A stretch of DNA of 64,000 bases. It comes from an uncultured Clostridia bacterium. GTDB taxonomy: Bacteria > Bacillota > Clostridia > Christensenellales > UBA1242. Both the position numbers and the translations under genes were made by a program. Where the stretch lies: assembly GCA_947589025.1 (NCBI GenBank), contig CANQAY010000003.1, positions 24,907 to 88,906 of the forward strand, in the 5' to 3' direction. Of this stretch, positions 1 to 40,933 are shown one piece after another (within the stretch, counting starts at the first letter, position 1; each line of letters begins with the position of its first letter). The notes below the pieces were generated by a model. That model had not been told where the DNA came from and searched no databases. It worked only from the letters and a program-made list of their open reading frames with translations.

Positions 1-3000
1 ATTATAGAAAATTTTATTATCTTAACACTAGCACCGTGTTCGGCGAATATGACGAGTTGGGCAGATATGGTTATTTAACCATTTCGGCAACAGACACAAT
101 TGATAATGGCGCAAAAGATGTTAAATATTTGGTTATTTATGATTTAGACAGCAACAACATGAGTTATTACACCTTCACTTCTGGCTCAAGCTTAACCAAC
201 TTTAATTTAACCCCTTATGAAGAAGACCAATTGTTGTTCTACGCTGGGTGTGATTTATCTTTTGATATTTACGATCAAAGCCGTGATGTTGACGCCGTTG
301 AAAATGGAGATAACGACAGCTTTATTGGCTATAGATTTAAAGAATTAAATGCCCTAGATTTTGTAAATTTAAGTTTGCAAAATTCAAATTTAAATAGTTA
401 CAGCATAAGCCTTCCTGCCTCAAGCATTGAAAGTGCAAATTTCAAAAATGGCTATGCAGATGGCCAAATTGTGGCAAAGTTTGAAAAAATTGTTTATTCA
501 GTTAATTTGTTAATTGACCAAGCCGCTGGCAGTTTAAATGTTAGCCACAATGGGGTGGAACTTGCAAATGTGTCGGAAATTAGCAACATGACGATTGATG
601 ACGAATATGTTATAAGCTATAGATCCGAATTGGGCTACGAATTAACCTCAACCAACCCATTAACCTTTACAAACAGCATAAACAACAACATAATTGTTGT
701 GCTTTACTCAACCGCAGAGGAAGATGGCGTAATTATTCAAAGATATGTTTTAACTTTAAATGCCGAATGGCTAAGAACAAATTATTATTCTAATTTTGAC
801 AACGCTTATTCAGTTAACAACACAAACCTTGGCAACATTAATGTTAACACGCAAGAAATTTTGTTTAACTATGGCGTTAAAGTTTATGATATTTCGGATA
901 ATGACGAAAACATTAACATAAGAACACTTTTGGAAAACCGAGCCGATTATGGCAACTATAGTTTATCTAACAACACGGTAGATATTAGCAATTTGTTTGT
1001 TGAAATAGGTGGCGGCTGGGGTTATAAATATAACGGTGTTGAATACGCCGTTATGCAAAGTGGTGAATATAATGTAACCAACCCAACCATCCGGTTAAAT
1101 TCTTGCATTTTCTTTAAAGAATATGATTATTTATTAAGTTCTAGCATCAAACCTAATGTTTCATATTCCGTTTCGCCAGATCAATTAAAAAATTTAATAG
1201 AATATGAAGATGGCGTTATTGTGCCAAAAGATGCAAGAAACATTTATTTTGTTGTGTATGTAAGGCAACAATTTGCCATAACTTTAAAAGTGGAATTTAT
1301 GGATAAAGATGCTAAAAGCGGCACGCGAACCACCACATTTAGCATGCAAACCAGAAATAATAATGCAACGCTTACCATTTCGGGCGCTGACGAAAATAAA
1401 TCAATAATTGTTTACACCTACGCTGGCTACACTGCAAACATATTAAATTACAGTTTGGATGCCGACGCGCAAAAACGCTATAGCGGGGTGGAATATACCC
1501 TAAATGAAAACATTAATATTTTGCCAAACACAAATTTTCAGATTACTGAAAATAGCACAATTGTTATTAAATATATTCCAAAATCGCTTAATGTAATAAC
1601 CCAATTTTATGTTAACAATGTGTTGTGCGATGAACAGCCAAGCGAAATTACCGAATTTGCTATAACATCAAGTTCTTCTAGCTTAAATTTGTTTGTAAAT
1701 GATGTTTTAACTGTTAGCTATCAATGCAACCCAGATTATGATATTTCAATAACATTTAACAATAAAACCCCACAATCAACCCAAAATAACACCGTAGCTT
1801 ACACAATTACGGATGACGATTATGAAGCCGGCTTTGTTAACTTAGTTGTAATGTTAACCATTCATAAAAATGGAGATTTACAAATAGCCTTCTCATTAGA
1901 AGATGGCAAGGCGTTATCATCAGATGATTATGGCAGATTTGAAGTAACAGTTTCTGGCAACGAGCAAACTTCAACCACACAGGGCACCAAATCGGTTTCA
2001 ATAAATGTGCTTGAAGGCAGAGCAATAAGCCTAAAAATACACTTAAATGAAGGTTATAGCTTTAAATACATTAAAGATGATAGAAATCAACTTATTACCG
2101 ATGTTTTGCAAGATGAAATTGTTTTAACCGATAATTTTGATGTTACTGTAAAAAGTTACATTATTTGCATTAAAAAGGATAGCATTCAGGTCAACTTGCA
2201 GTTTGACGAAGGGCAAATTGCCAACTACACACTTGATGTTAATGACGAAAATGGCATTCAAAAAACAGTTGATGAGACAGGCAATGTTAGCATAACCGGG
2301 CTTTATGTTGGCAAAGAAGTAAGCATAAGGAGATTAAGCGATTTACCTTATGAAGAGTTGGAGTATTATTATTTGCAAGGCTTTGAATCTAACCACATAT
2401 CTTCACCTTTAGCTATTGATAAAGAACTGCTTAGAACATTGCAATCTAACACAATAACAATAAAGGTTAAAAGCATAAGAAAATATTATATTTCAATTGA
2501 ATATGATAACCCAGAGTTAACCGACCTTAAACTTTCAAGCGACATTGGCGAAACTGGCAATTACATTGCAGAAGATGCAGATCACACTGCAAGCCTAACC
2601 TTCACGCTAGACAGCACAGTGCCAACAAAATATATCACTTCTGTTTATTTGCAAAATGCAAGCCAAGCTTTAAAATCGGGCTTTAATCCAATAACATTTA
2701 CCTTGTCTGTTAACAAAGGCAACATTTCAATTGATGATGAATTTAAAGCAACGGTTATAGATTCTCAATTTGTAAACATAAAAATATCCGTAGAGGCCAG
2801 AACATTTAACCAAACAGACAGTGTGCGTGAATATTTGTATGATGCACTTGAACAAGAGCCACAACTTACCGATACTCCGGTTAACAACGCACAAAATTTA
2901 GGCAAAACTGGTTATTTGGAGCAAGCGGAATTGTGCATAGTGCGAAAAACAGACGATAGGGAACTAACCGAATTTAATATTCAAACTGTTGAAGGTGCAA

Positions 3001-3227
3001 CAATTAATGTTAAACTAGATGGTAATTTGCAAGCGACATCCAGTGCGGGCAAAGTTGAAATAAACGGCAATGTAATAACATTAACCATTGGTGATGGAGA
3101 CGATGCCGTAACTTATACTTACACATTAATTGTGCAAGAAAATAGAATTTATATCTATTACACAGTTTACGGCCCAACTCAAATTGAACTCTATTACACT
3201 GCCTTTAAAACAGTGCAACCTAGCTAA
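1..3227 (+). CDS. large Asn/Thr/Ser/Tyr-rich beta-type secreted or surface protein, C-terminal part (5' end outside the window)
   Basis: ORF track 36..3227. The same frame upstream of the GTG at 36 (codons from nt 3: Y R K F Y Y L N T S T) has no stop, so the frame is open to the window edge. No catalytic motif, LPXTG or C-terminal TM recognised. Confidence 0.6.
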   Translation, partial: YRKFYYLNTSTVFGEYDELGRYGYLTISATDTIDNGAKDVKYLVIYDLDSNNMSYYTFTSGSSLTNFNLTPYEEDQLLFYAGCDLSFDIYDQSRDVDAVENGDNDSFIGYRFKELNALDFVNLSLQNSNLNSYSISLPASSIESANFKNGYADGQIVAKFEKIVYSVNLLIDQAAGSLNVSHNGVELANVSEISNMTIDDEYVISYRSELGYELTSTNPLTFTNSINNNIIVVLYSTAEEDGVIIQRYVLTLNAEWLRTNYYSNFDNAYSVNNTNLGNINVNTQEILFNYGVKVYDISDNDENINIRTLLENRADYGNYSLSNNTVDISNLFVEIGGGWGYKYNGVEYAVMQSGEYNVTNPTIRLNSCIFFKEYDYLLSSSIKPNVSYSVSPDQLKNLIEYEDGVIVPKDARNIYFVVYVRQQFAITLKVEFMDKDAKSGTRTTTFSMQTRNNNATLTISGADENKSIIVYTYAGYTANILNYSLDADAQKRYSGVEYTLNENINILPNTNFQITENSTIVIKYIPKSLNVITQFYVNNVLCDEQPSEITEFAITSSSSSLNLFVNDVLTVSYQCNPDYDISITFNNKTPQSTQNNTVAYTITDDDYEAGFVNLVVMLTIHKNGDLQIAFSLEDGKALSSDDYGRFEVTVSGNEQTSTTQGTKSVSINVLEGRAISLKIHLNEGYSFKYIKDDRNQLITDVLQDEIVLTDNFDVTVKSYIICIKKDSIQVNLQFDEGQIANYTLDVNDENGIQKTVDETGNVSITGLYVGKEVSIRRLSDLPYEELEYYYLQGFESNHISSPLAIDKELLRTLQSNTITIKVKSIRKYYISIEYDNPELTDLKLSSDIGETGNYIAEDADHTASLTFTLDSTVPTKYITSVYLQNASQALKSGFNPITFTLSVNKGNISIDDEFKATVIDSQFVNIKISVEARTFNQTDSVREYLYDALEQEPQLTDTPVNNAQNLGKTGYLEQAELCIVRKTDDRELTEFNIQTVEGATINVKLDGNLQATSSAGKVEINGNVITLTIGDGDDAVTYTYTLIVQENRIYIYYTVYGPTQIELYYTAFKTVQPS

Positions 3228-29711: not shown

Positions 29712-29966
29712 ATGAGCATGTTAAGTGAAATAGAAAAATTTATGGGCTCTGCCGAAGCTTCAATAAATTATCGCATTGTAAATTTGGGCGGCAAAAGCTT
29801 ATACATTGAAGGCTTAAAGGCAGTTGTAAGTTTTGGCGTTAACGAAATGCAGTTTCAGTTAAAACATAGCTTACTTTCAGTTGTTGGCAGCCAGTTAAAA
29901 ATTAAATATTTAGATAAAACCACCTGCATAATTGTTGGGGAAATAACATCGGTGGTGAGCAAATGA
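29712..29966 (+). CDS. yqfC: YqfC/YabP-family sporulation protein
   Basis: YabP-like core (LYIEG...V..F...E..F.......V.G..L.I......). Immediately upstream of, and overlapping, yqfD. Start uncertain (ATG at 29712, 29718 or 29742). Confidence 0.7.
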   Translation: MSMLSEIEKFMGSAEASINYRIVNLGGKSLYIEGLKAVVSFGVNEMQFQLKHSLLSVVGSQLKIKYLDKTTCIIVGEITSVVSK

Positions 29967-31054
29967 AATTTACTTTAACAGGTTATAATGCGGATAACCT
30001 TTTAAAAACGCTTTATATTAAAAAAGTAACGCTATATAATGTGCAACGTCCGGATGTAAAAACCCTAATGTTTGAAGTGGCAGAAAAGGACGAAAAAAAG
30101 GTAAAGCGTTACATTGCCAACTTTAAAGTTAAGCGCACTCCAAAATTAATTAAGCGCTTGCCCAAATTTGTGCTAATTAATTTAGGGTTAATTTTAGGCG
30201 TGTTTTTAGGCGGAATTTTTTTTCTTTTTGCATCTAATTATACTTGGAAAATTTCCATTTACGGCACAAAAGAACTTTCAGTTAGCGAAATTATTGATGT
30301 TTTAAACAAAAATGGCGTAAAAACGGGCAAAATAAACCTGCAGTCTAGCGAGGAAATTGAAAGCATTTTGTTAAATAATTATGATAGAATAGCCCAAGTT
30401 TCAGTTATACGCGAGGGCACGCACATAATAATAAATTTAAGTGAAAAACTAGTTTATGAGGAAGAAGAATTTGCCCCGTTAACCGCAAAATTTAGCGGAA
30501 TAATAACCAAAATTAATGTAATTTCTGGCACAAACAACGTTAAAGTGGGCTCATTTGTTAATGTTGGAGATGTGCTTGTGCTTCCGTTTAACATAAATAG
30601 CAATGGGCAAAAGGTTAGCGTTAAGCCATTGGCAGAAATTTTGGGCAAAATTTACATAACCAACACATTGCAATTAAGCAAAATTGAAACAAAACTTGTG
30701 CCAACTGGCAAATCCACCACAATATATAACTATAAAATATTTAATTTAAATTTATTTTCTGGCAAAAACAAAAATTCGTTTGCACTTTTTTCTTCAACAA
30801 GTTATAATGAAAATATATCAAGGCTAATTCCGTTATCTCGCGATGTGGTAACATATTTTGAACTAACACCAACGCAAATTGAACACAATTTTGAATTGGA
30901 GCGGGCAGAACTTGAAAAAAATGCGTTAAATTCTGTGTTGTCAAATTTGCCACAATATAGCCAAAAGTTTGGTGAAAAGGTAACCACCAGCATTGTGGAT
31001 AATGTGATGTATGCCAGCGCGGTGGTGGAGTTGGAGGGCTCGTTAATTGGTTGA
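29963..31054 (+). CDS. yqfD: sporulation protein YqfD
   Basis: Size, a single TM after ~60 aa, and the position after yqfC and before ybeY/era, as in Bacillus yqfC-yqfD. Confidence 0.75.
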   Translation: MKFTLTGYNADNLLKTLYIKKVTLYNVQRPDVKTLMFEVAEKDEKKVKRYIANFKVKRTPKLIKRLPKFVLINLGLILGVFLGGIFFLFASNYTWKISIYGTKELSVSEIIDVLNKNGVKTGKINLQSSEEIESILLNNYDRIAQVSVIREGTHIIINLSEKLVYEEEEFAPLTAKFSGIITKINVISGTNNVKVGSFVNVGDVLVLPFNINSNGQKVSVKPLAEILGKIYITNTLQLSKIETKLVPTGKSTTIYNYKIFNLNLFSGKNKNSFALFSSTSYNENISRLIPLSRDVVTYFELTPTQIEHNFELERAELEKNALNSVLSNLPQYSQKFGEKVTTSIVDNVMYASAVVELEGSLIG

Positions 31055-32417
31055 ATTTTTAGGCAATTTTAATGAAGAAATTAAGGCTAATCTTGTTAGG
31101 GTTTATAACGAAGTAAGCCGCGTTCTTTCATTGCCTAAAAGCGTTATTGTTAACTTAAATTTGGTTAATGAAAAACAAATAAAACAGCTTAACAAAACCA
31201 CACGCAATATAGATAAGGTTACCGATGTTTTAACATACCCTTATGTTAATTTAAAAGTGGGGCAAAAGTTAAAACTTAAAGATTACGCTTTTGAATTGGA
31301 TCCTGCTAACAAAATGCTTACAATTGGCGATATTTACATTTGCAACGAGCGGGCAATTGCACAAGCAAAAGAGTATAATCACACTGTTAATAGGGAGTTT
31401 TGCTTTCTTTTCTTACATGGCCTGCTTCACATTTGCGGGTACGACCACTTAAACGATGCTGACGCAAAATTGATGGAGGCAATGCAAAACAAAATTTTAA
31501 ACGCACTAAACATCACTCGCAACAGTTATAAATGTGGGTTTGTAACCATTGTGGGAGATACTAACGCGGGCAAAAGCACATTAATAAACCAATTGGTTGG
31601 GGAGCATGTTGCCATTGTTAGCCCCAAAAGCCAAACCACGCGGGAAAATATTAAGGGCATATATAACGATAGCACCACCCAAATTGTGTTTGTGGATACG
31701 CCCGGTTATCATAAACGCAAAACGCTTGTGGATGAGCAGATGGACAAGCAAATTGAAGAGGCCACTGCCGACACTGAAATTGTTTTAATGCTTATAGATG
31801 CAAACAAACCGCTTGTGGATAGTTACCTTAAACTAGATAAAAAAATTAGCACTAACGCCAAAAAAATTTTGTTAATAAACAAAATTGATGAGGCAAGTTA
31901 TCAAAAACTCTATCCTCAATTGGCGGAATTATCTAAAATTGCCAAAACGGACGAAATTTTGCCAATTAGCGCATTAAAAGGCAAAAATTGTGATGTTTTA
32001 ATAGATATGATAAAAAAATATCTTCCAACTTACGATTATGAAATGCGCTATTATCCAATTGATGAATATACCGACAAAAACTTGCGCCAAATGGTGGCGG
32101 AAATTGTTAGGGAAAAGGCACTTTTATGCTTAGATGACGAAATCCCTCACGGTGTGCAAGTTGTGGTGACGGATTATAAAGAAAATTCAACTCCAATTGA
32201 AATTTATGCCGACCTTTATTGCGAAAAAGAAAGCCACAAAGCCATAATTTTGGGCAAAGCTGGGGAAATGATTAAAAAAATTTCCACTTTATCTCGCATC
32301 AGCATAGAAAAATTGGTGCAAAACAAGGTTAATTTACAACTTTATGTTAAAGTTAAGCCAAATTGGCGCAACGATATTAAGGCAATTGAAAATTTTGGCT
32401 TAAAAGTTAGTGAATAA
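31047..32417 (+). CDS. era: YbeY (rRNA maturation endoribonuclease) - Era (GTPase) fusion protein
   Basis: N-terminal ~155 aa carry the zinc motif HGLLHICGYDH (HxxxHxxxxxH). They are followed in one ORF by Era G1 GDTNAGKST, G3 DTPG, G4 NKID and a C-terminal KH domain. TTG start at 31047, 9 nt after GGAGG. Confidence 0.88.
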   Translation: MVEFLGNFNEEIKANLVRVYNEVSRVLSLPKSVIVNLNLVNEKQIKQLNKTTRNIDKVTDVLTYPYVNLKVGQKLKLKDYAFELDPANKMLTIGDIYICNERAIAQAKEYNHTVNREFCFLFLHGLLHICGYDHLNDADAKLMEAMQNKILNALNITRNSYKCGFVTIVGDTNAGKSTLINQLVGEHVAIVSPKSQTTRENIKGIYNDSTTQIVFVDTPGYHKRKTLVDEQMDKQIEEATADTEIVLMLIDANKPLVDSYLKLDKKISTNAKKILLINKIDEASYQKLYPQLAELSKIAKTDEILPISALKGKNCDVLIDMIKKYLPTYDYEMRYYPIDEYTDKNLRQMVAEIVREKALLCLDDEIPHGVQVVVTDYKENSTPIEIYADLYCEKESHKAIILGKAGEMIKKISTLSRISIEKLVQNKVNLQLYVKVKPNWRNDIKAIENFGLKVSE

Positions 32418-36856: not shown

Positions 36857-38623
36857 ATGAATAAGGGTTTTCCCAGCGATTTTCTAGAGCAAGTGCGCAA
36901 TAGAAACGACATTGTTGATTTTGCCAGCCGCTATATAACTCTTAACCGCCGTGGCGGTAATTTTTGGGCATGCTGCCCATTTCATAATGAAAAAACTCCT
37001 TCTTTTTCAATAAAACCAGACGGGCAATTTTATAAGTGTTTTGGCTGTGGAGAAAGTGGAAATATTTTTTCCCTTGCCATGAAGTTAGAAAATATTGATT
37101 TTATTACAGCTGTTGAAATGCTTGCCAAAAATGCCGGGCTAGAAATGCCATCTTATGCCGATAATGCCGAACTTCAGCGCCAAAAGAAAGAGCGCGAAAC
37201 CATGTTTAAAATTTTAAAATACACAGCCGAGTTTTATCATAACAATCTTATAAACAATCCGCAATCAGCACAAGCTAAATATTTGCAAACCCGCCTAATG
37301 AATGCTGAAATGATAAAAAAATTTCAAATTGGTGCCTCACTTAATTTTGAAGATTTGCCGAAATATCTTTTAAAAAGCGGCTTTAAAGAAGAAGAAATTA
37401 TAAAAGCGGGCGTAGTTGGGAAAAACGAATTTAATAAATTATACGATTTTTATGGCGGAAGATTGATGTTCCCAATATTCAACGGCTTTGGCGATGTTGT
37501 TGCCTTTTCGGGCAGAAGTGTAGATGCAAATCCAGAGCATGCAAAATATAAAAATACTCCACAATCACCAATCTTTAACAAAAGTGAAATTTTGTTTGCC
37601 TATAATTTTGCACGAGAACTAAAAAAACAACATATGCTAGATTCTTTGGTTATTGTGGAAGGCCATATTGATGTAATTATGTGCCATCAGGCAGGCATAA
37701 ACAACACAATTGGTTGCATGGGCACGGCATTAACAAGCTTGCACGCACGCAAAATTAAGCAGCTTGTGGATAATGTTATTTTGTGTTTGGATGCCGACGG
37801 TGCTGGCAATGCCGCCACATATAAGGCAATAGACACATTAAAAGAAGTTGGCTTAAATGTTAGGGTTGTTCGCCTTGTTGGGGCAAAAGACCCAGACGAA
37901 TATATCAAAAAATTTGGCAAAGATAAATTTGTTGAGTTTTTAGAAAATTCTATAGATTGTGTGGATTTTGTTTTGCAAGATAGTGCAAAAAAATATAATT
38001 TAAATTCAAATATTGGCAAAAATAATTATGTAAATGAGGCACTTAATTACATTTCTAAATTTTCATCCCCTGCCGAACAAGAAATTTATTTGAAAGTGGT
38101 TCAAAATTTAGTTAAAATCCCTTTAGATGCCTTGCGAAAAAGCCTAACAGAGCCAAAATATAAAATAAAAGAGCAAGAGGCAGAACAGGCAGAATCAATT
38201 AAAAACAAATCCATAATAGATGCTAAAATTTTAATATTATCGGCATTGCTGTATAAAAAAATAAAAAATTTTGAAGATTTTAAAGGAGTTTTCCAATCGG
38301 ACGACGAATTAAGTAAATTGTATGATTATTTGCTTAACAAGGCTAAAAATAATGCAGATTATAGCGTTTCCGCAATATTTGACACCTTTGAAATAACGCC
38401 AAATTCGTTGTTGGACAAGGTTATAAATTATGCTTTCCCTGAAGATAATCTTTTAAACAGCATGCTTTCTGATGCCACTAAACGATTAAAATTATTTAAT
38501 TTGGAACAGCAAAAATCTAATTATACGCAGTTAATGATGCAATCCAATAGCAATGAGGAGAGATATAAATATTTGCAAAAAATTCAAGAACTTACCGTCC
38601 AAATTAATAAGGAGAAGATGTGA
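36857..38623 (+). CDS. dnaG: DNA primase
   Basis: Zinc-binding CPFHNEKTPSFSI......YKCFGCGESGN, TOPRIM (EGHIDV, DADGAG), 588 aa. Confidence 0.96.
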   Translation: MNKGFPSDFLEQVRNRNDIVDFASRYITLNRRGGNFWACCPFHNEKTPSFSIKPDGQFYKCFGCGESGNIFSLAMKLENIDFITAVEMLAKNAGLEMPSYADNAELQRQKKERETMFKILKYTAEFYHNNLINNPQSAQAKYLQTRLMNAEMIKKFQIGASLNFEDLPKYLLKSGFKEEEIIKAGVVGKNEFNKLYDFYGGRLMFPIFNGFGDVVAFSGRSVDANPEHAKYKNTPQSPIFNKSEILFAYNFARELKKQHMLDSLVIVEGHIDVIMCHQAGINNTIGCMGTALTSLHARKIKQLVDNVILCLDADGAGNAATYKAIDTLKEVGLNVRVVRLVGAKDPDEYIKKFGKDKFVEFLENSIDCVDFVLQDSAKKYNLNSNIGKNNYVNEALNYISKFSSPAEQEIYLKVVQNLVKIPLDALRKSLTEPKYKIKEQEAEQAESIKNKSIIDAKILILSALLYKKIKNFEDFKGVFQSDDELSKLYDYLLNKAKNNADYSVSAIFDTFEITPNSLLDKVINYAFPEDNLLNSMLSDATKRLKLFNLEQQKSNYTQLMMQSNSNEERYKYLQKIQELTVQINKEKM

Positions 38624-39135
38624 TAAAAATAGATCAAAATGATACACTTTACAAGTTTTTAAAAGGGATTGGCGCCGATGATGTTGAGGCAGATTATTTA
38701 GAACTTGCTTCAAATGGCAGATATTCAATTTCAGATATAAGAAAATATTTAAAATCGAAGTTTGACCCAAGCCTAACAAAAGAACTAGACGATAAAGAAC
38801 TGGAAAAAATTTTAGATTATTACATAGATATTAAAAAAATAAAGCGCATAAATAAAAAAGAACTTAAAAATTTGCTTGAAATGTATTACGATACGCAAGA
38901 TGATGCAATTAAAAACATAATAATAACTTCATGTTTAAAAGATGTGCTGTGTTTATGTTTAAACTATTCCACCATGCACACTAACATAGATATTCAAGAT
39001 TTAATTCAAGTTGCAAACATTGGCATTATAACCGCACTTAACAAATATCAACCAAAATCAAAAATAGATTTTAACGATTATATTTTGTATTGGACAAGAA
39101 AGGAAATAATTAAAGAATTTGAGGAGAAAAATTAA
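38620..39135 (+). CDS. sigma-70 region-2-like protein lacking regions 3 and 4
   Basis: GTG start overlaps the dnaG stop (ATGTGA) and lies 5 nt after AAGGAG. Its stop overlaps the rpoD start (TAATG). Residues 127-163, [37 protein letters not shown], align with [37 protein letters not shown] of the adjacent RpoD. Confidence 0.65.
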
Positions 39136-40226
39136 TGGATATGATTGATGTTAAACAAAAGATTTTAGAACAACTTAAAGCTAATCATCAAAAGTCAATT
39201 TCGGAAGATAATTTAATTGGCAAATTAACCAGCAAATATGGGGATTTAGATTTAAGTGAAATTGAAGATGTTAAAAAATATTTAACCCAAAATGGCATAA
39301 CAATAACCGATAGTGTGCCAGACATTGCCATTGACGATAAAGAATTTGAAGATATTATAAGCCAAATTAATGTTAATGACCCTGTTAAAATGTATTTAAA
39401 AGAAATTGGCAACATTCCGCTATTATCCGCTGATGAAGAGCGTGAACTAAGCAGGCAATTGATAGAAGAAAATAGTGAGTATGCGCGCAACAAATTGTGG
39501 GAATCTAACTTAAGATTGGTTGTTAGCATTGCAAAAAGATATCAAAATAAATTGCCATTTTTGGATCTTATTCAAGAGGGCAATTTGGGCTTAATGAAAG
39601 CCGTTGAAAAATTTGACTACACAAAGGGATACAAATTTTCAACATACGGCACTTGGTGGATAAGGCAAAGCATAACACGTGCAATTTCGGATCAAGCACG
39701 ATTGATGCGTGTGCCTGTGCATATGGTGGAAACAATTTTAAAACACAATAGGGCAGTGCGCGATTTATTGCAAGAGTTGGGCAGAGATCCTACAGTAGAA
39801 GAGATTGCCGAGCGTTTGGGCACAACAGTAAGTAAAGTTGTTGAAGTGCAACGCATATCGCAAGATCCTATTTCGCTGGAAAGTAAAATGGGGCATGAAG
39901 AAGATAGCAAAATTGGAGATTTAATTCCGGACGAAAACATGCTATCTCCACAAGAGGTGACCCAACAAAATATGCTAAAAGAACAACTTATGAGTTTGTT
40001 GGAATCTTTAACTCCAAGGGAACAAAAAGTTATTCGTTTGCGCTATGGGTTGGACGATTCTCACCCACGCACACTTGAAGAAGTTGGCAGAGAATTTTCA
40101 GTTACTCGTGAGCGTATCCGCCAAATTGAAGCCAAGGCATTAAGAAAATTGCGCCATCCAAGTAAATTAAAAAAATTGCGTGATGAAATTGGTGAAGAAG
40201 ACCCACGCGACAGAGACAAAAAGTAA
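39135..40226 (+). CDS. rpoD: primary RNA polymerase sigma factor (SigA/RpoD)
   Basis: Regions 1.2 ([11 protein letters not shown]), 2 ([30 protein letters not shown]), 3 and 4 ([41 protein letters not shown]). Confidence 0.96.
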
Positions 40227-40234
40227 GGAGAAAT

Positions 40235-40933
40235 ATGAAAACTATTTTAGAAATTCAAAAGTTAGATAGGCAAATTAAATTGTTAAATAGAGAAGTTGAA
40301 AAATGCCCCGCAAGTGTGGATTTTAAAAAATATAAGCAAATTTTGCAAGAGGGAAGAACGCGTTTTGAACAACTAGAATCTCAAGCTAACGAAATTATAA
40401 AAAGTTACAATAATGCTGCAAATAAATACAATAAACTAAAAGGCAACAGCGAAATTATAAGAAAACGCAACACAAAGGATATAGATTTAGATAGCGTAAA
40501 TTCCCTTATAACTGATGCCAACAGTTTGGTTGGTGAATTAAGCGAAGAAAACCGCCGCGTTGAAGATTTGGTGCGCAAATCTGAAGAGATTGTTAGAAAA
40601 AGTGCCGAGCTAAGCAACAAATTAACCGAGGCAAAAAGGCGTTCGGGCTCAATTAAGGCAAAAATTGAAGAAAAAAAGCAAGAAGTTGCCCCAAAAATTG
40701 CAGAAATTGAAAAGAAAATTAAAGAATTAGAGCCAAAAGTTCAAGATAAAGAAAAATATGCAAAATATAAAGAAATGAAGCAAAAAGGCATTTTCCCTGT
40801 TTATGTTTATATTGAAGATGTTTTTTGTGGAGGCTGCAAAGTAGAACTTTCACTTAATTTTATTGAAAAATTAAAAACAAAAAAGATGCTTACTTGTGAG
40901 CATTGCGGCAGAATAATAATGCTAGATAAGTAA
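40235..40933 (+). CDS. coiled-coil protein with a C-terminal C4 zinc ribbon (COG1579-like)
   Basis: Long heptad-rich region, then CGGC...17 aa...CEHCGRI. Confidence 0.7.
   Translation: MKTILEIQKLDRQIKLLNREVEKCPASVDFKKYKQILQEGRTRFEQLESQANEIIKSYNNAANKYNKLKGNSEIIRKRNTKDIDLDSVNSLITDANSLVGELSEENRRVEDLVRKSEEIVRKSAELSNKLTEAKRRSGSIKAKIEEKKQEVAPKIAEIEKKIKELEPKVQDKEKYAKYKEMKQKGIFPVYVYIEDVFCGGCKVELSLNFIEKLKTKKMLTCEHCGRIIMLDK

Follow-up and report, generated by a model that had tools for sequence, protein, structure and literature searches.

What is the function of a protein that carries region 2 of a sigma factor without regions 3 and 4, and that is encoded between the genes for the primase (dnaG) and the primary sigma factor (rpoD)? 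This question is raised by a 64,000-nucleotide stretch of DNA from an uncultured Clostridia bacterium (Christensenellales, UBA1242; assembly GCA_947589025.1, contig CANQAY010000003.1, positions 24,907 to 88,906 of the forward strand), referred to below as the window. An open reading frame (ORF) of 171 codons fills the dnaG-rpoD junction in this window. A first-pass annotation of the letters had described it as a sigma region 2-only ORF and had offered three explanations: a competitor or decoy for core RNA polymerase (RNAP), one half of a split sigma factor, or a decaying tandem duplicate of rpoD. The coordinates of the ORF and the layout of both its junctions were found to be as given in that annotation (Table 1). 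The best explanation is that the ORF is a shortened paralogue of the primary sigma factor that is functional and has been inherited vertically; it lacks sigma-3, the 3.2 finger and sigma-4. Its residue pattern suggests that it may act by mimicking sigma-2 on core RNAP.

Domain composition and predicted fold

The ORF product matches the Pfam family Sigma70_r2 (PF04542) with 35.1 bits (cut-off 24, E = 1.2e-8), with residues 102-168 aligned to positions 2-66 of the 71 in the profile. No match of the ORF was obtained to the Pfam profiles Sigma70_r3, Sigma70_r4 and r4_2, the r4 profiles being searched at E <= 1, in agreement with the initial description of a protein restricted to region 2. Colinearity with the core of the RpoD encoded directly downstream, also part of that description, was borne out by BLASTP (E = 3e-8, ORF residues 37-165 against RpoD residues 43-182) and by profile-profile comparison of the ORF family with RpoD of the clade using hhalign (97.8 % probability, E = 7e-13, ORF 55-166 against RpoD 65-183). 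The homology is far beyond chance and therefore starts at region 1.2 and reaches halfway into the 2.4 helix; the assignment to region 2 stood, while its limits had been drawn too narrowly. A DDKE(L/F)E motif ahead of region 1.2 is common to the ORF family and RpoD.

The identity between the ORF and sigma-2 of the neighbouring RpoD is only ~25 %, and by hidden Markov model (HMM) score RpoD is no nearer to the sigma segment than RpoH-type models are. In NCBIfam many sigma models were matched, but only in part and at the N-terminus, with scores far under the cut-off in every case. The superfamily model TIGR02937, which spans sigma-2 plus sigma-4, was matched over positions 6-71 only (38.8 against a cut-off of 42.9), and the RpoD equivalog models scored 24-30 bits against cut-offs of 354-572, which places the ORF outside the group 1 (RpoD/SigA) sigma factors. 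Of the features of a functional sigma-70 factor, region 2 is present, region 4 is absent, and the set of residues for -10 recognition and melting is incomplete. Its position and colinearity make it plausible that the ORF arose from a tandem duplication of the 5' half of rpoD, though this is unprovable at ~25 % identity. Two full-length sigma factors from AT-rich sources, P0250 (368 amino acids) and P0200 (418 amino acids), match the family profile over positions 23-169 and 3-170, respectively, which is more N-terminal than the matches of other sigma factors. P0250 also has the YYKDIK form of region 1.2. The ORF family may have arisen from this kind of sigma factor.

AlphaFold2, run with the family alignment, predicted a single compact body of ten helices with high confidence (predicted local distance difference test score, pLDDT, 94.4; predicted template modelling score, pTM, 0.89). 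In Foldseek searches with this model, 102-110 residues were superposed on sigma-2 of solved sigma factors at 1.5-3.3 Å, e.g. SigA of Staphylococcus aureus (1.5 Å over 103 residues), SigA of Clostridioides difficile (2.0 Å), sigma-32 (1.9 Å) and sigma-S (~3.2 Å). An integrative model of Bacillus subtilis SigA was the only one to align over all 170 columns, at a root-mean-square deviation of 11 Å, which is too weak for use. In the model the chain stops at residue 171, within the 2.4 helix, and no helices follow the 2.3/2.4 helix. In the region 1.2-like segment, residues D66, Y67, Y68 and D70 are each at least 95 % conserved; these and all other residue percentages were counted over 210 aligned full-length members of the family.

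The N-terminal part of the protein forms a conserved three-helix domain specific to this family, a feature that had not been described before. Its most strongly conserved positions are D5, D8, L10, Y11, L14, L17, Y26, A30 and G33. Residues 1-54 gave no sequence match in Pfam or the PDB, and no structural neighbour was found when the isolated model was compared with the PDB by Foldseek (best probability 0.09). Relationship to sigma-1.1 of RpoD was considered and rejected, as the hhalign score of 15.1 was not significant against shuffled controls (9.7 +/- 2.4, maximum 18.3). The pLDDT of the N-terminal domain is 92-97 in the full-length model versus 71 when modelled alone, which suggests that the domain depends on packing against sigma-2. 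A putative metal site formed by the seemingly invariant C113 and H120 was also rejected, both residues being lost in distant subfamilies.

Distribution, gene order and selection

A first search identified 127 relatives, nearly all of 171-175 amino acids and with PF04542 as their only domain. An exhaustive profile search, covering 1.84 billion representatives, revealed a sharp family boundary: full-length matches have E <= 1e-29, and the next matches are ordinary sigma factors aligned to profile positions ~55-171 only. Expansion from the most distant members raised the family to at least 246 clusters, and at least 210 full-length members (167-180 amino acids, 32-87 % identity to the protein of the window) were aligned. 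In the databases these relatives are named "hypothetical protein" or, automatically, "sigma-70 family RNA polymerase sigma factor" only. Other stand-alone sigma-2 families were sought among the short matches of the exhaustive search and were dismissed, as these matches proved to be contig-end fragments or small sigma factors that still carry r3 or r4.

A phage or defence origin was also rejected. A scan of IMG/VR revealed no viral relatives, and in PHROGs only the generic sigma family phrog_351 was matched. The MzaA model of the defence database PADLOC was matched by the sigma-2 part only (28.7 bits). The housekeeping RpoD itself matches the NCBIfam MzaA model (NF041931) at 344 bits, so that the similarity between the ORF and MzaA is a generic one.

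The ORF is carried by uncultured Clostridia of the gut, with chicken, rabbit and sheep among the source animals, and the records bear the labels Ca. Onthoplasma, "Christensenella" or Clostridia bacterium. Onthoplasma belongs to GTDB family UBA1242 of the Christensenellales, a family with genomes of ~0.67-1.6 Mb, and its metagenome-assembled genomes (MAGs) measure ~0.8-0.9 Mb and contain 780-930 genes (PMC12306168). One of the loci compared here (L008) derives from a MAG of that study. Retention of the ORF in genomes of ~0.8-0.9 Mb implies a useful function.

The location of the ORF inside the dnaG-rpoD operon, with overlapping junctions, was found to be a general property of the family. The order dnaG-ORF-rpoD is conserved in 47 of 47 loci, i.e. 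43 loci of a first set and four loci of distant subfamilies (L053-L056). The latter, at ~30-40 % identity, keep the three genes together while their upstream neighbours differ. The genes overlap or abut in the 40 loci in which junctions could be measured. At the dnaG/ORF junction 35 of these have a 4-nt GTGA or ATGA overlap and the other five have TAGTG, and nearly all have an AAGGAG-like site 5-6 nt upstream of the ORF start; the combination of this motif with a GTG(A) overlap recurs in nearly all of 41 loci. At the ORF/rpoD junction the genes overlap by 1, 8 or 14 nt or abut. In the window, the GTG start of the ORF overlaps the TGA stop of dnaG (38621-38623), and the last A of the ORF stop (TAA, 39133-39135) is shared with the ATG of rpoD (39135-39137). 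Since an in-frame stop lies only three codons upstream of this GTG, the N-terminus of the ORF is well defined.

Both Shine-Dalgarno sites are embedded in the preceding coding sequence. The last codons of dnaG (K-E-K) encode the AAGGAG of the ORF, while the tail codons of the ORF (39112-39132, GAGGAGAAA), which encode E-F-E-E-K, double as the Shine-Dalgarno site of rpoD. This double use, a further point beyond the first-pass annotation, recurs at the same position in the 43 loci of the first set (L001-L043), and GAGGAGAA or AAGGAGAA is kept at the rpoD Shine-Dalgarno position across loci. The protein tails at both junctions are constrained by the downstream ribosome-binding sites. Because its codons constitute the rpoD Shine-Dalgarno site, the acidic tail EFEEK is not readable as a protein feature, and the idea of a functional DNA-mimicking tail was dropped for this reason. 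From the start of dnaG to ~40985 no G+C-rich terminator-like site was found, apart from one weak 5-bp stem in dnaG; the promoter and terminator scan of the window was otherwise uninformative. The ORF is likely expressed, and its junctions suggest translational coupling to dnaG and rpoD.

This geometry might be taken to mean that the ORF is a translational-coupling spacer that sets the expression of rpoD relative to dnaG, the protein having little or no function. The overlap of both junctions, the Shine-Dalgarno sites inside the preceding coding sequences and the conservation of this arrangement would all fit such a spacer. Coupling, however, does not need 171 conserved codons, and selection was found to act at the amino acid level. 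The median omega (dN/dS, the ratio of nonsynonymous to synonymous substitution rates) over the 29 locus pairs with unsaturated dS was 0.20 for the ORF, 0.12 for dnaG and 0.08 for rpoD, and in the closest pairs the ORF showed values of 0.05-0.12, comparable to DnaG. Both parts of the protein are constrained (omega 0.13 for the N-terminal part and 0.14 for sigma-2). Furthermore, 26 positions are at least 95 % conserved, and the fold is confidently predicted. The spacer is considered very improbable.

The same data bear on the suggestion that the ORF is what is left of a tandem duplicate of rpoD that is decaying into a pseudogene. It does adjoin rpoD and is colinear with its N-terminal half. However, the 210 members are intact and of near-constant length, no frameshifts or internal stops were found in 43 loci, and dN/dS (0.05-0.2) is far below 1. 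There is also no leftover sequence of region 3 or 4, the stop of the ORF overlaps the start of rpoD, and the ORF is retained in streamlined genomes with a high coding density. Decay is refuted by the conservation and dN/dS values and can be practically discarded. Distances between ORF proteins correlate with those between the DnaG and RpoD proteins of the same loci (Mantel r = 0.61, with 0 of 2000 permutations as high), consistent with vertical inheritance.

Core-binding and DNA-contact residues

Residue roles were taken from work on sigma70 (bioRxiv 10.1101/2020.09.07.285775), with the RpoD alignment as a bridge to the ORF. Apart from exceptions discussed below, the core-binding residues of regions 2.1 and 2.2 are conserved. 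The equivalents of sigma70 D403, Q406 and N409 are D (100 %), Q (100 %) and N (99 %) in the family and lie in the motif D127-L-I-Q130-V-A-N133-I-G135-...-A139, in which conservation of at least 95 % is also reached by both G135 and A139. L384 is likewise invariant (L, 100 %), V387 is represented by V, I or L, and M413 by I, L or M. The structural aromatics F419 and F427 are kept as Y/F and F, respectively.

A different picture emerges for the residues that melt and read promoter DNA. At the melting and recognition positions, Y425 is replaced by an aliphatic residue (I/L/V), K426 by D, E or S and T429 by D (72 %), and R436 is kept as R in only 68 % of members. Y430 is retained (Y, 97 %), W433 is Y, and W434 is W or Y. 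Of the -12 recognition residues, Q437 is replaced by E, D or K, and the T440 position is scrambled. The canonical core-binding, melting and -12 residues are all intact in the adjacent RpoD, in which all four regions are present. The overall charge of sigma-2 is reversed: a 68-residue segment carries a net charge of -2.4 +/- 1.7 in the family (n = 203), versus +2.8 +/- 2.5 in 97 other sigma factors, of which 1 % are as negative as the family mean. The same segment of the neighbouring RpoD carries +6.8.

A minimal promoter-specificity factor would be another way to read this protein. It could be a sigma factor consisting of sigma-2 only, like gp55 of phage T4 (PMC7892883), or one half of a split sigma factor, like SigO-RsoA of B. 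subtilis (PMC7826278), docking on the clamp helices of beta-prime and reading a -10-like element, with -35 recognition dispensable or supplied by another protein. Besides these precedents, the retention of region 1.2, of the core-binding motif and of the aromatics at Y430, W433 and W434 would suit such a factor. Nevertheless it is considered unlikely, since the -12 residues and Y425 are lost, K426 and T429 have become acidic, and the negative charge is unlike that of 99 % of the sigma factors compared. A helix-loop-helix extension of the gp55 type is also lacking, as the protein ends within the 2.4 helix, and the phage databases yielded only the generic match mentioned above. The split-sigma variant, proposed in the first-pass annotation, found no support: when all six frames of the window were scanned with r3 and r4 profiles specific to the clade, only RpoD was identified, and no ORF with sigma-3 or sigma-4 alone was found in the window or in the conserved neighbourhood. 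The linked neighbour, being complete and canonical, needs no complement.

A possible role on core RNA polymerase

The frozen docking face, the degenerate and acidic DNA-reading face and the absence of sigma-3 and sigma-4 together fit best a non-DNA-binding sigma-2 mimic that would dock on the beta-prime clamp helices and share its message with SigA. This reading is tentative, with an estimated probability of roughly 0.45. It revives the competitor or decoy of the first-pass annotation, which is favoured by the invariant core-binding residues, the lost promoter residues and the reversed charge. Gene structure, conservation, purifying selection, domain homology, the residue pattern and the charge shift were observed directly, and the fold is a prediction; that the protein binds RNAP, competes there, no longer binds DNA and plays such a physiological part is deduced from them.

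In the proposed mechanism, the ORF would be co-transcribed with dnaG and rpoD, its translation would be coupled through the overlapping stop and start codons and the embedded Shine-Dalgarno sites, and the protein would in this way be made together with SigA. By keeping the 2.1/2.2 surface with which sigma factors dock on the clamp helices, it would bind core RNAP at the sigma-2 site. With its promoter-contacting residues replaced and its domain acidic it would neither recognize nor melt a -10 element, and without sigma-4 it would not read a -35 element. It would thus occupy, or compete for, a site on the clamp helices that is also used by SigA, by any other sigma factor and by NusG. Its part would be to modulate core RNAP or to keep the place occupied, and not to confer promoter specificity. 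Isolated fragments of sigma70 that contain region 2 reportedly bind core and compete with sigma70, as is said of work by Lesley and Burgess in 1989, Severinova et al. in 1996 and Young et al. in 2001. Such binding by engineered fragments makes the proposed activity biochemically plausible.

Several points weigh against a sigma-2 mimic on core RNAP. The equivalent of E407, one of the four core-binding residues cited for sigma70, is not conserved (V/I/T), and the L402 equivalent is Q in the family. The Y430, W433 and W434 positions stay aromatic, so that some contact with single-stranded DNA may persist; these aromatics could equally be structural. The acidic tail, with its codons constrained by the rpoD Shine-Dalgarno site, has no weight as evidence. 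Compared with a whole sigma factor, sigma-2 on its own should have a much lower affinity for core. Finally, it is hard to see what a decoy produced at a constant ratio to SigA would regulate, unless it is itself controlled, for instance via the N-terminal domain. As a rule, the competition of sigma factors for core RNAP is governed by small molecules and RNAs or by anti-sigma factors, which bind sigma.

The target of mimicry might also be a protein other than core RNAP. The ORF product could imitate sigma-2 of SigA and titrate a sigma-2-binding protein, such as an anti-sigma factor, a phage-encoded inhibitor or an accessory factor, off SigA. In its logic this would resemble the capture of the anti-sigma factor NepR by the sigma-like domain of PhyR, and the concept has a precedent in PhyR-NepR partner switching (PMC4551977). 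The sigma-2 fold and the presumed co-expression with SigA are in line with it, the lost DNA-binding features fit a pure protein-binding role, and the conserved N-terminal domain could add specificity. Yet the most conserved surface is the beta-prime docking motif and not a SigA-specific one, and at ~25 % identity to sigma-2 of RpoD the ORF would be a poor mimic of SigA-specific epitopes. In addition, no linked candidate gene for a partner was found, and reduced genomes of ~800 genes carry few regulators. Titration of a partner protein is regarded as quite unlikely.

The fold and the sigma-2 domain are already known. The novelty lies in the natural occurrence, in a minimal-genome lineage, of a stand-alone sigma-2 protein that is fixed in the chromosome and in which core-binding residues are kept, promoter-reading residues are lost and a new N-terminal domain is added. 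No natural sigma-2-only or decoy sigma proteins beyond gp55, SigO-RsoA and the PhyR-type systems were found in the literature, nor was a natural chromosomal protein described there that amounts to the core-docking module of a sigma factor without DNA reading. A more far-reaching proposal, considered doubtful, is that the family represents a new class of RNAP accessory protein: a natural sigma-2 place-holder that makes no promoter contact and sits on the clamp helices of beta-prime in core or elongating RNAP, its N-terminal domain serving as a second contact or a switch. Such a protein could have been fixed in the dnaG-rpoD operon during genome reduction, possibly replacing lost factors for sigma recycling or NusG access.

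If binding to the clamp helices holds true, the ORF would provide a simple, built-in antagonist or place-holder of the site shared by sigma factors and NusG, and would reveal a way in which the only housekeeping holoenzyme of a minimal genome is tuned. Free core RNAP could be titrated with it as a ready-made tool, and it would constitute a natural experiment that separates the sigma-2 residues needed for core binding from those needed for DNA melting. The members are small, soluble-looking and confidently modelled, which makes the hypothesis directly testable.

Genomic surroundings

The features of the locus are collected in Table 1. The genes surrounding it in the window (yqfD, ybeY-era, recO, PPDK, gyrB, gyrA and clpC) are ordinary chromosomal genes.

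Table 1 Features of the dnaG-rpoD locus, in positions of the window
Feature	Position	Strand	Basis and remarks
dnaG (primase, 588 amino acids)	36857..38623	+	Pfam Zn_ribbon_DnaG, DNAG_N, Toprim, DnaB_bind; last codons carry the Shine-Dalgarno site of the ORF
AAGGAG, Shine-Dalgarno site of the ORF, within dnaG	38609..38614	+	Sequence; followed by 5 nt and the GTG at 38620
Sigma-2-only ORF (171 amino acids plus stop)	38620..39135	+	GTG overlaps dnaG stop, TAA overlaps rpoD ATG
N-terminal family-specific three-helix domain, residues 1-54	38620..38781	+	Motif IDxxDxLYK(Y/F)L ... Y26, A30, G33
Sigma region 1.2-like segment, residues 55-78 (DDKELE...LDYYxDIKK)	38782..38853	+	hhalign to RpoD 65-98, a span that contains region 1.2 of RpoD
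Sigma-2 domain, residues 99-168 (2.1, 2.2, 2.3 and first half of 2.4 helix)	38914..39123	+	Pfam, Foldseek
Region 2.2 core-binding motif, D127 to A139	38998..39036	+	Equivalents of sigma70 D403, Q406, N409
GAGGAG, Shine-Dalgarno site of rpoD	39121..39126	+	Sequence; in ORF tail codons (E-E-K), 8 nt upstream of rpoD ATG
rpoD/sigA, complete primary sigma factor (363 amino acids)	39135..40226	+	Pfam r1_2, r2, r3, r4
Coiled-coil plus C4 zinc-ribbon gene (Zn_ribbon_9 / CT398-like)	40235..40933	+	Pfam; last gene of the terminator-free block

The zinc-ribbon gene downstream of rpoD is conserved at that position across the clade, and its product shows a sub-threshold match to the CT398-like coiled coil. 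Members of the CT398-like group, CT398 of Chlamydia and HP0958 of Helicobacter pylori, bind sigma-54. A transcription-related role of this neighbour of rpoD is perhaps worth a look. In one relative (locus L001, 2073-3003) dnaG-ORF-rpoD is immediately preceded by rplJ-rplL, ribosomal protein genes that are usually found ahead of rpoB-rpoC. A distant member (L055, 9770-10318) encodes a second small protein of 182 amino acids, ~4 kb downstream of the three genes, with a weak match to Sigma70_r2 alone. It could be an extracytoplasmic function (ECF) sigma factor with an undetected region 4, or another truncated sigma factor.

Elsewhere in the window, a single ORF of 456 amino acids (31047-32417, + strand) combines a YbeY endoribonuclease (residues 10-154) with an Era-type GTPase (MMR_HSR1 plus KH_2), and seems to have resulted from the fusion of two genes for ribosome maturation, which are normally adjacent but separate. 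Despite genomes of ~0.8-0.9 Mb, this lineage has kept a homologue of YqfD, a stage IV sporulation protein (29963-31054, + strand; Pfam E = 1.8e-48). An ORF of 1063 amino acids (36-3227, + strand) has no Pfam match at E <= 1e-5, which is unusual at that size in a streamlined genome.

Comparison with known systems

The T4 late sigma factor gp55 resembles the ORF in its similar size and in having a sigma region 2-like domain without sigma-4. This phage-encoded protein consists of a domain homologous to sigma region 2, a helix-loop-helix at the C-terminus and a motif for binding the sliding clamp; acidic residues mediate its docking on the clamp helices of beta-prime, and it reads a -10-like element in the absence of sigma-4 (PMC7892883). 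It works with gp33 and gp45. The ORF, in contrast, is chromosomal, has no phage relatives among those searched and lacks the helix-loop-helix, the clamp-binding tail and the DNA-contact residues, and does not match the gp55 type of late sigma factor. With SigO-RsoA, in which sigma-2 and sigma-4 reside on separate polypeptides (PMC7826278), the ORF shares the distribution of sigma functions over small separate polypeptides encoded side by side. SigO and RsoA together, however, make up one complete sigma factor, whereas the neighbours of the ORF in all 47 loci are DnaG and an already complete RpoD, so that its placement among the split sigma factors is not supported either. A specific match of the ORF to the MzaA-type sigma factor of anti-phage defence was not obtained.

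PhyR provides a parallel of another kind. Its sigma-like domain, like the ORF, is a degenerate member of the sigma-70 family and binds a protein and not a promoter, a role that would be comparable to the one suggested for the ORF. In PhyR, ECF-type sigma-2 and sigma-4 are fused to a receiver domain and bind NepR instead of RNAP, while the ORF has neither sigma-4 nor a receiver domain.

The closest comparison is with sigma-2 of the group 1 factors RpoD and SigA (regions 1.2-2.4). The fold is the same (1.5-3.3 Å over ~105 residues), the ORF is colinear with RpoD 65-183, and the equivalents of D403, Q406 and N409 of sigma70 are conserved. The ORF differs from RpoD/SigA in its extra N-terminal domain, which is without detectable relative, in the replacement of the -12 residues and part of the melting residues, and in being acidic instead of basic. 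Compared to RpoD/SigA, and to the fragments of region 2 made in the laboratory, it is a natural and separately encoded protein that ends inside the 2.4 helix.

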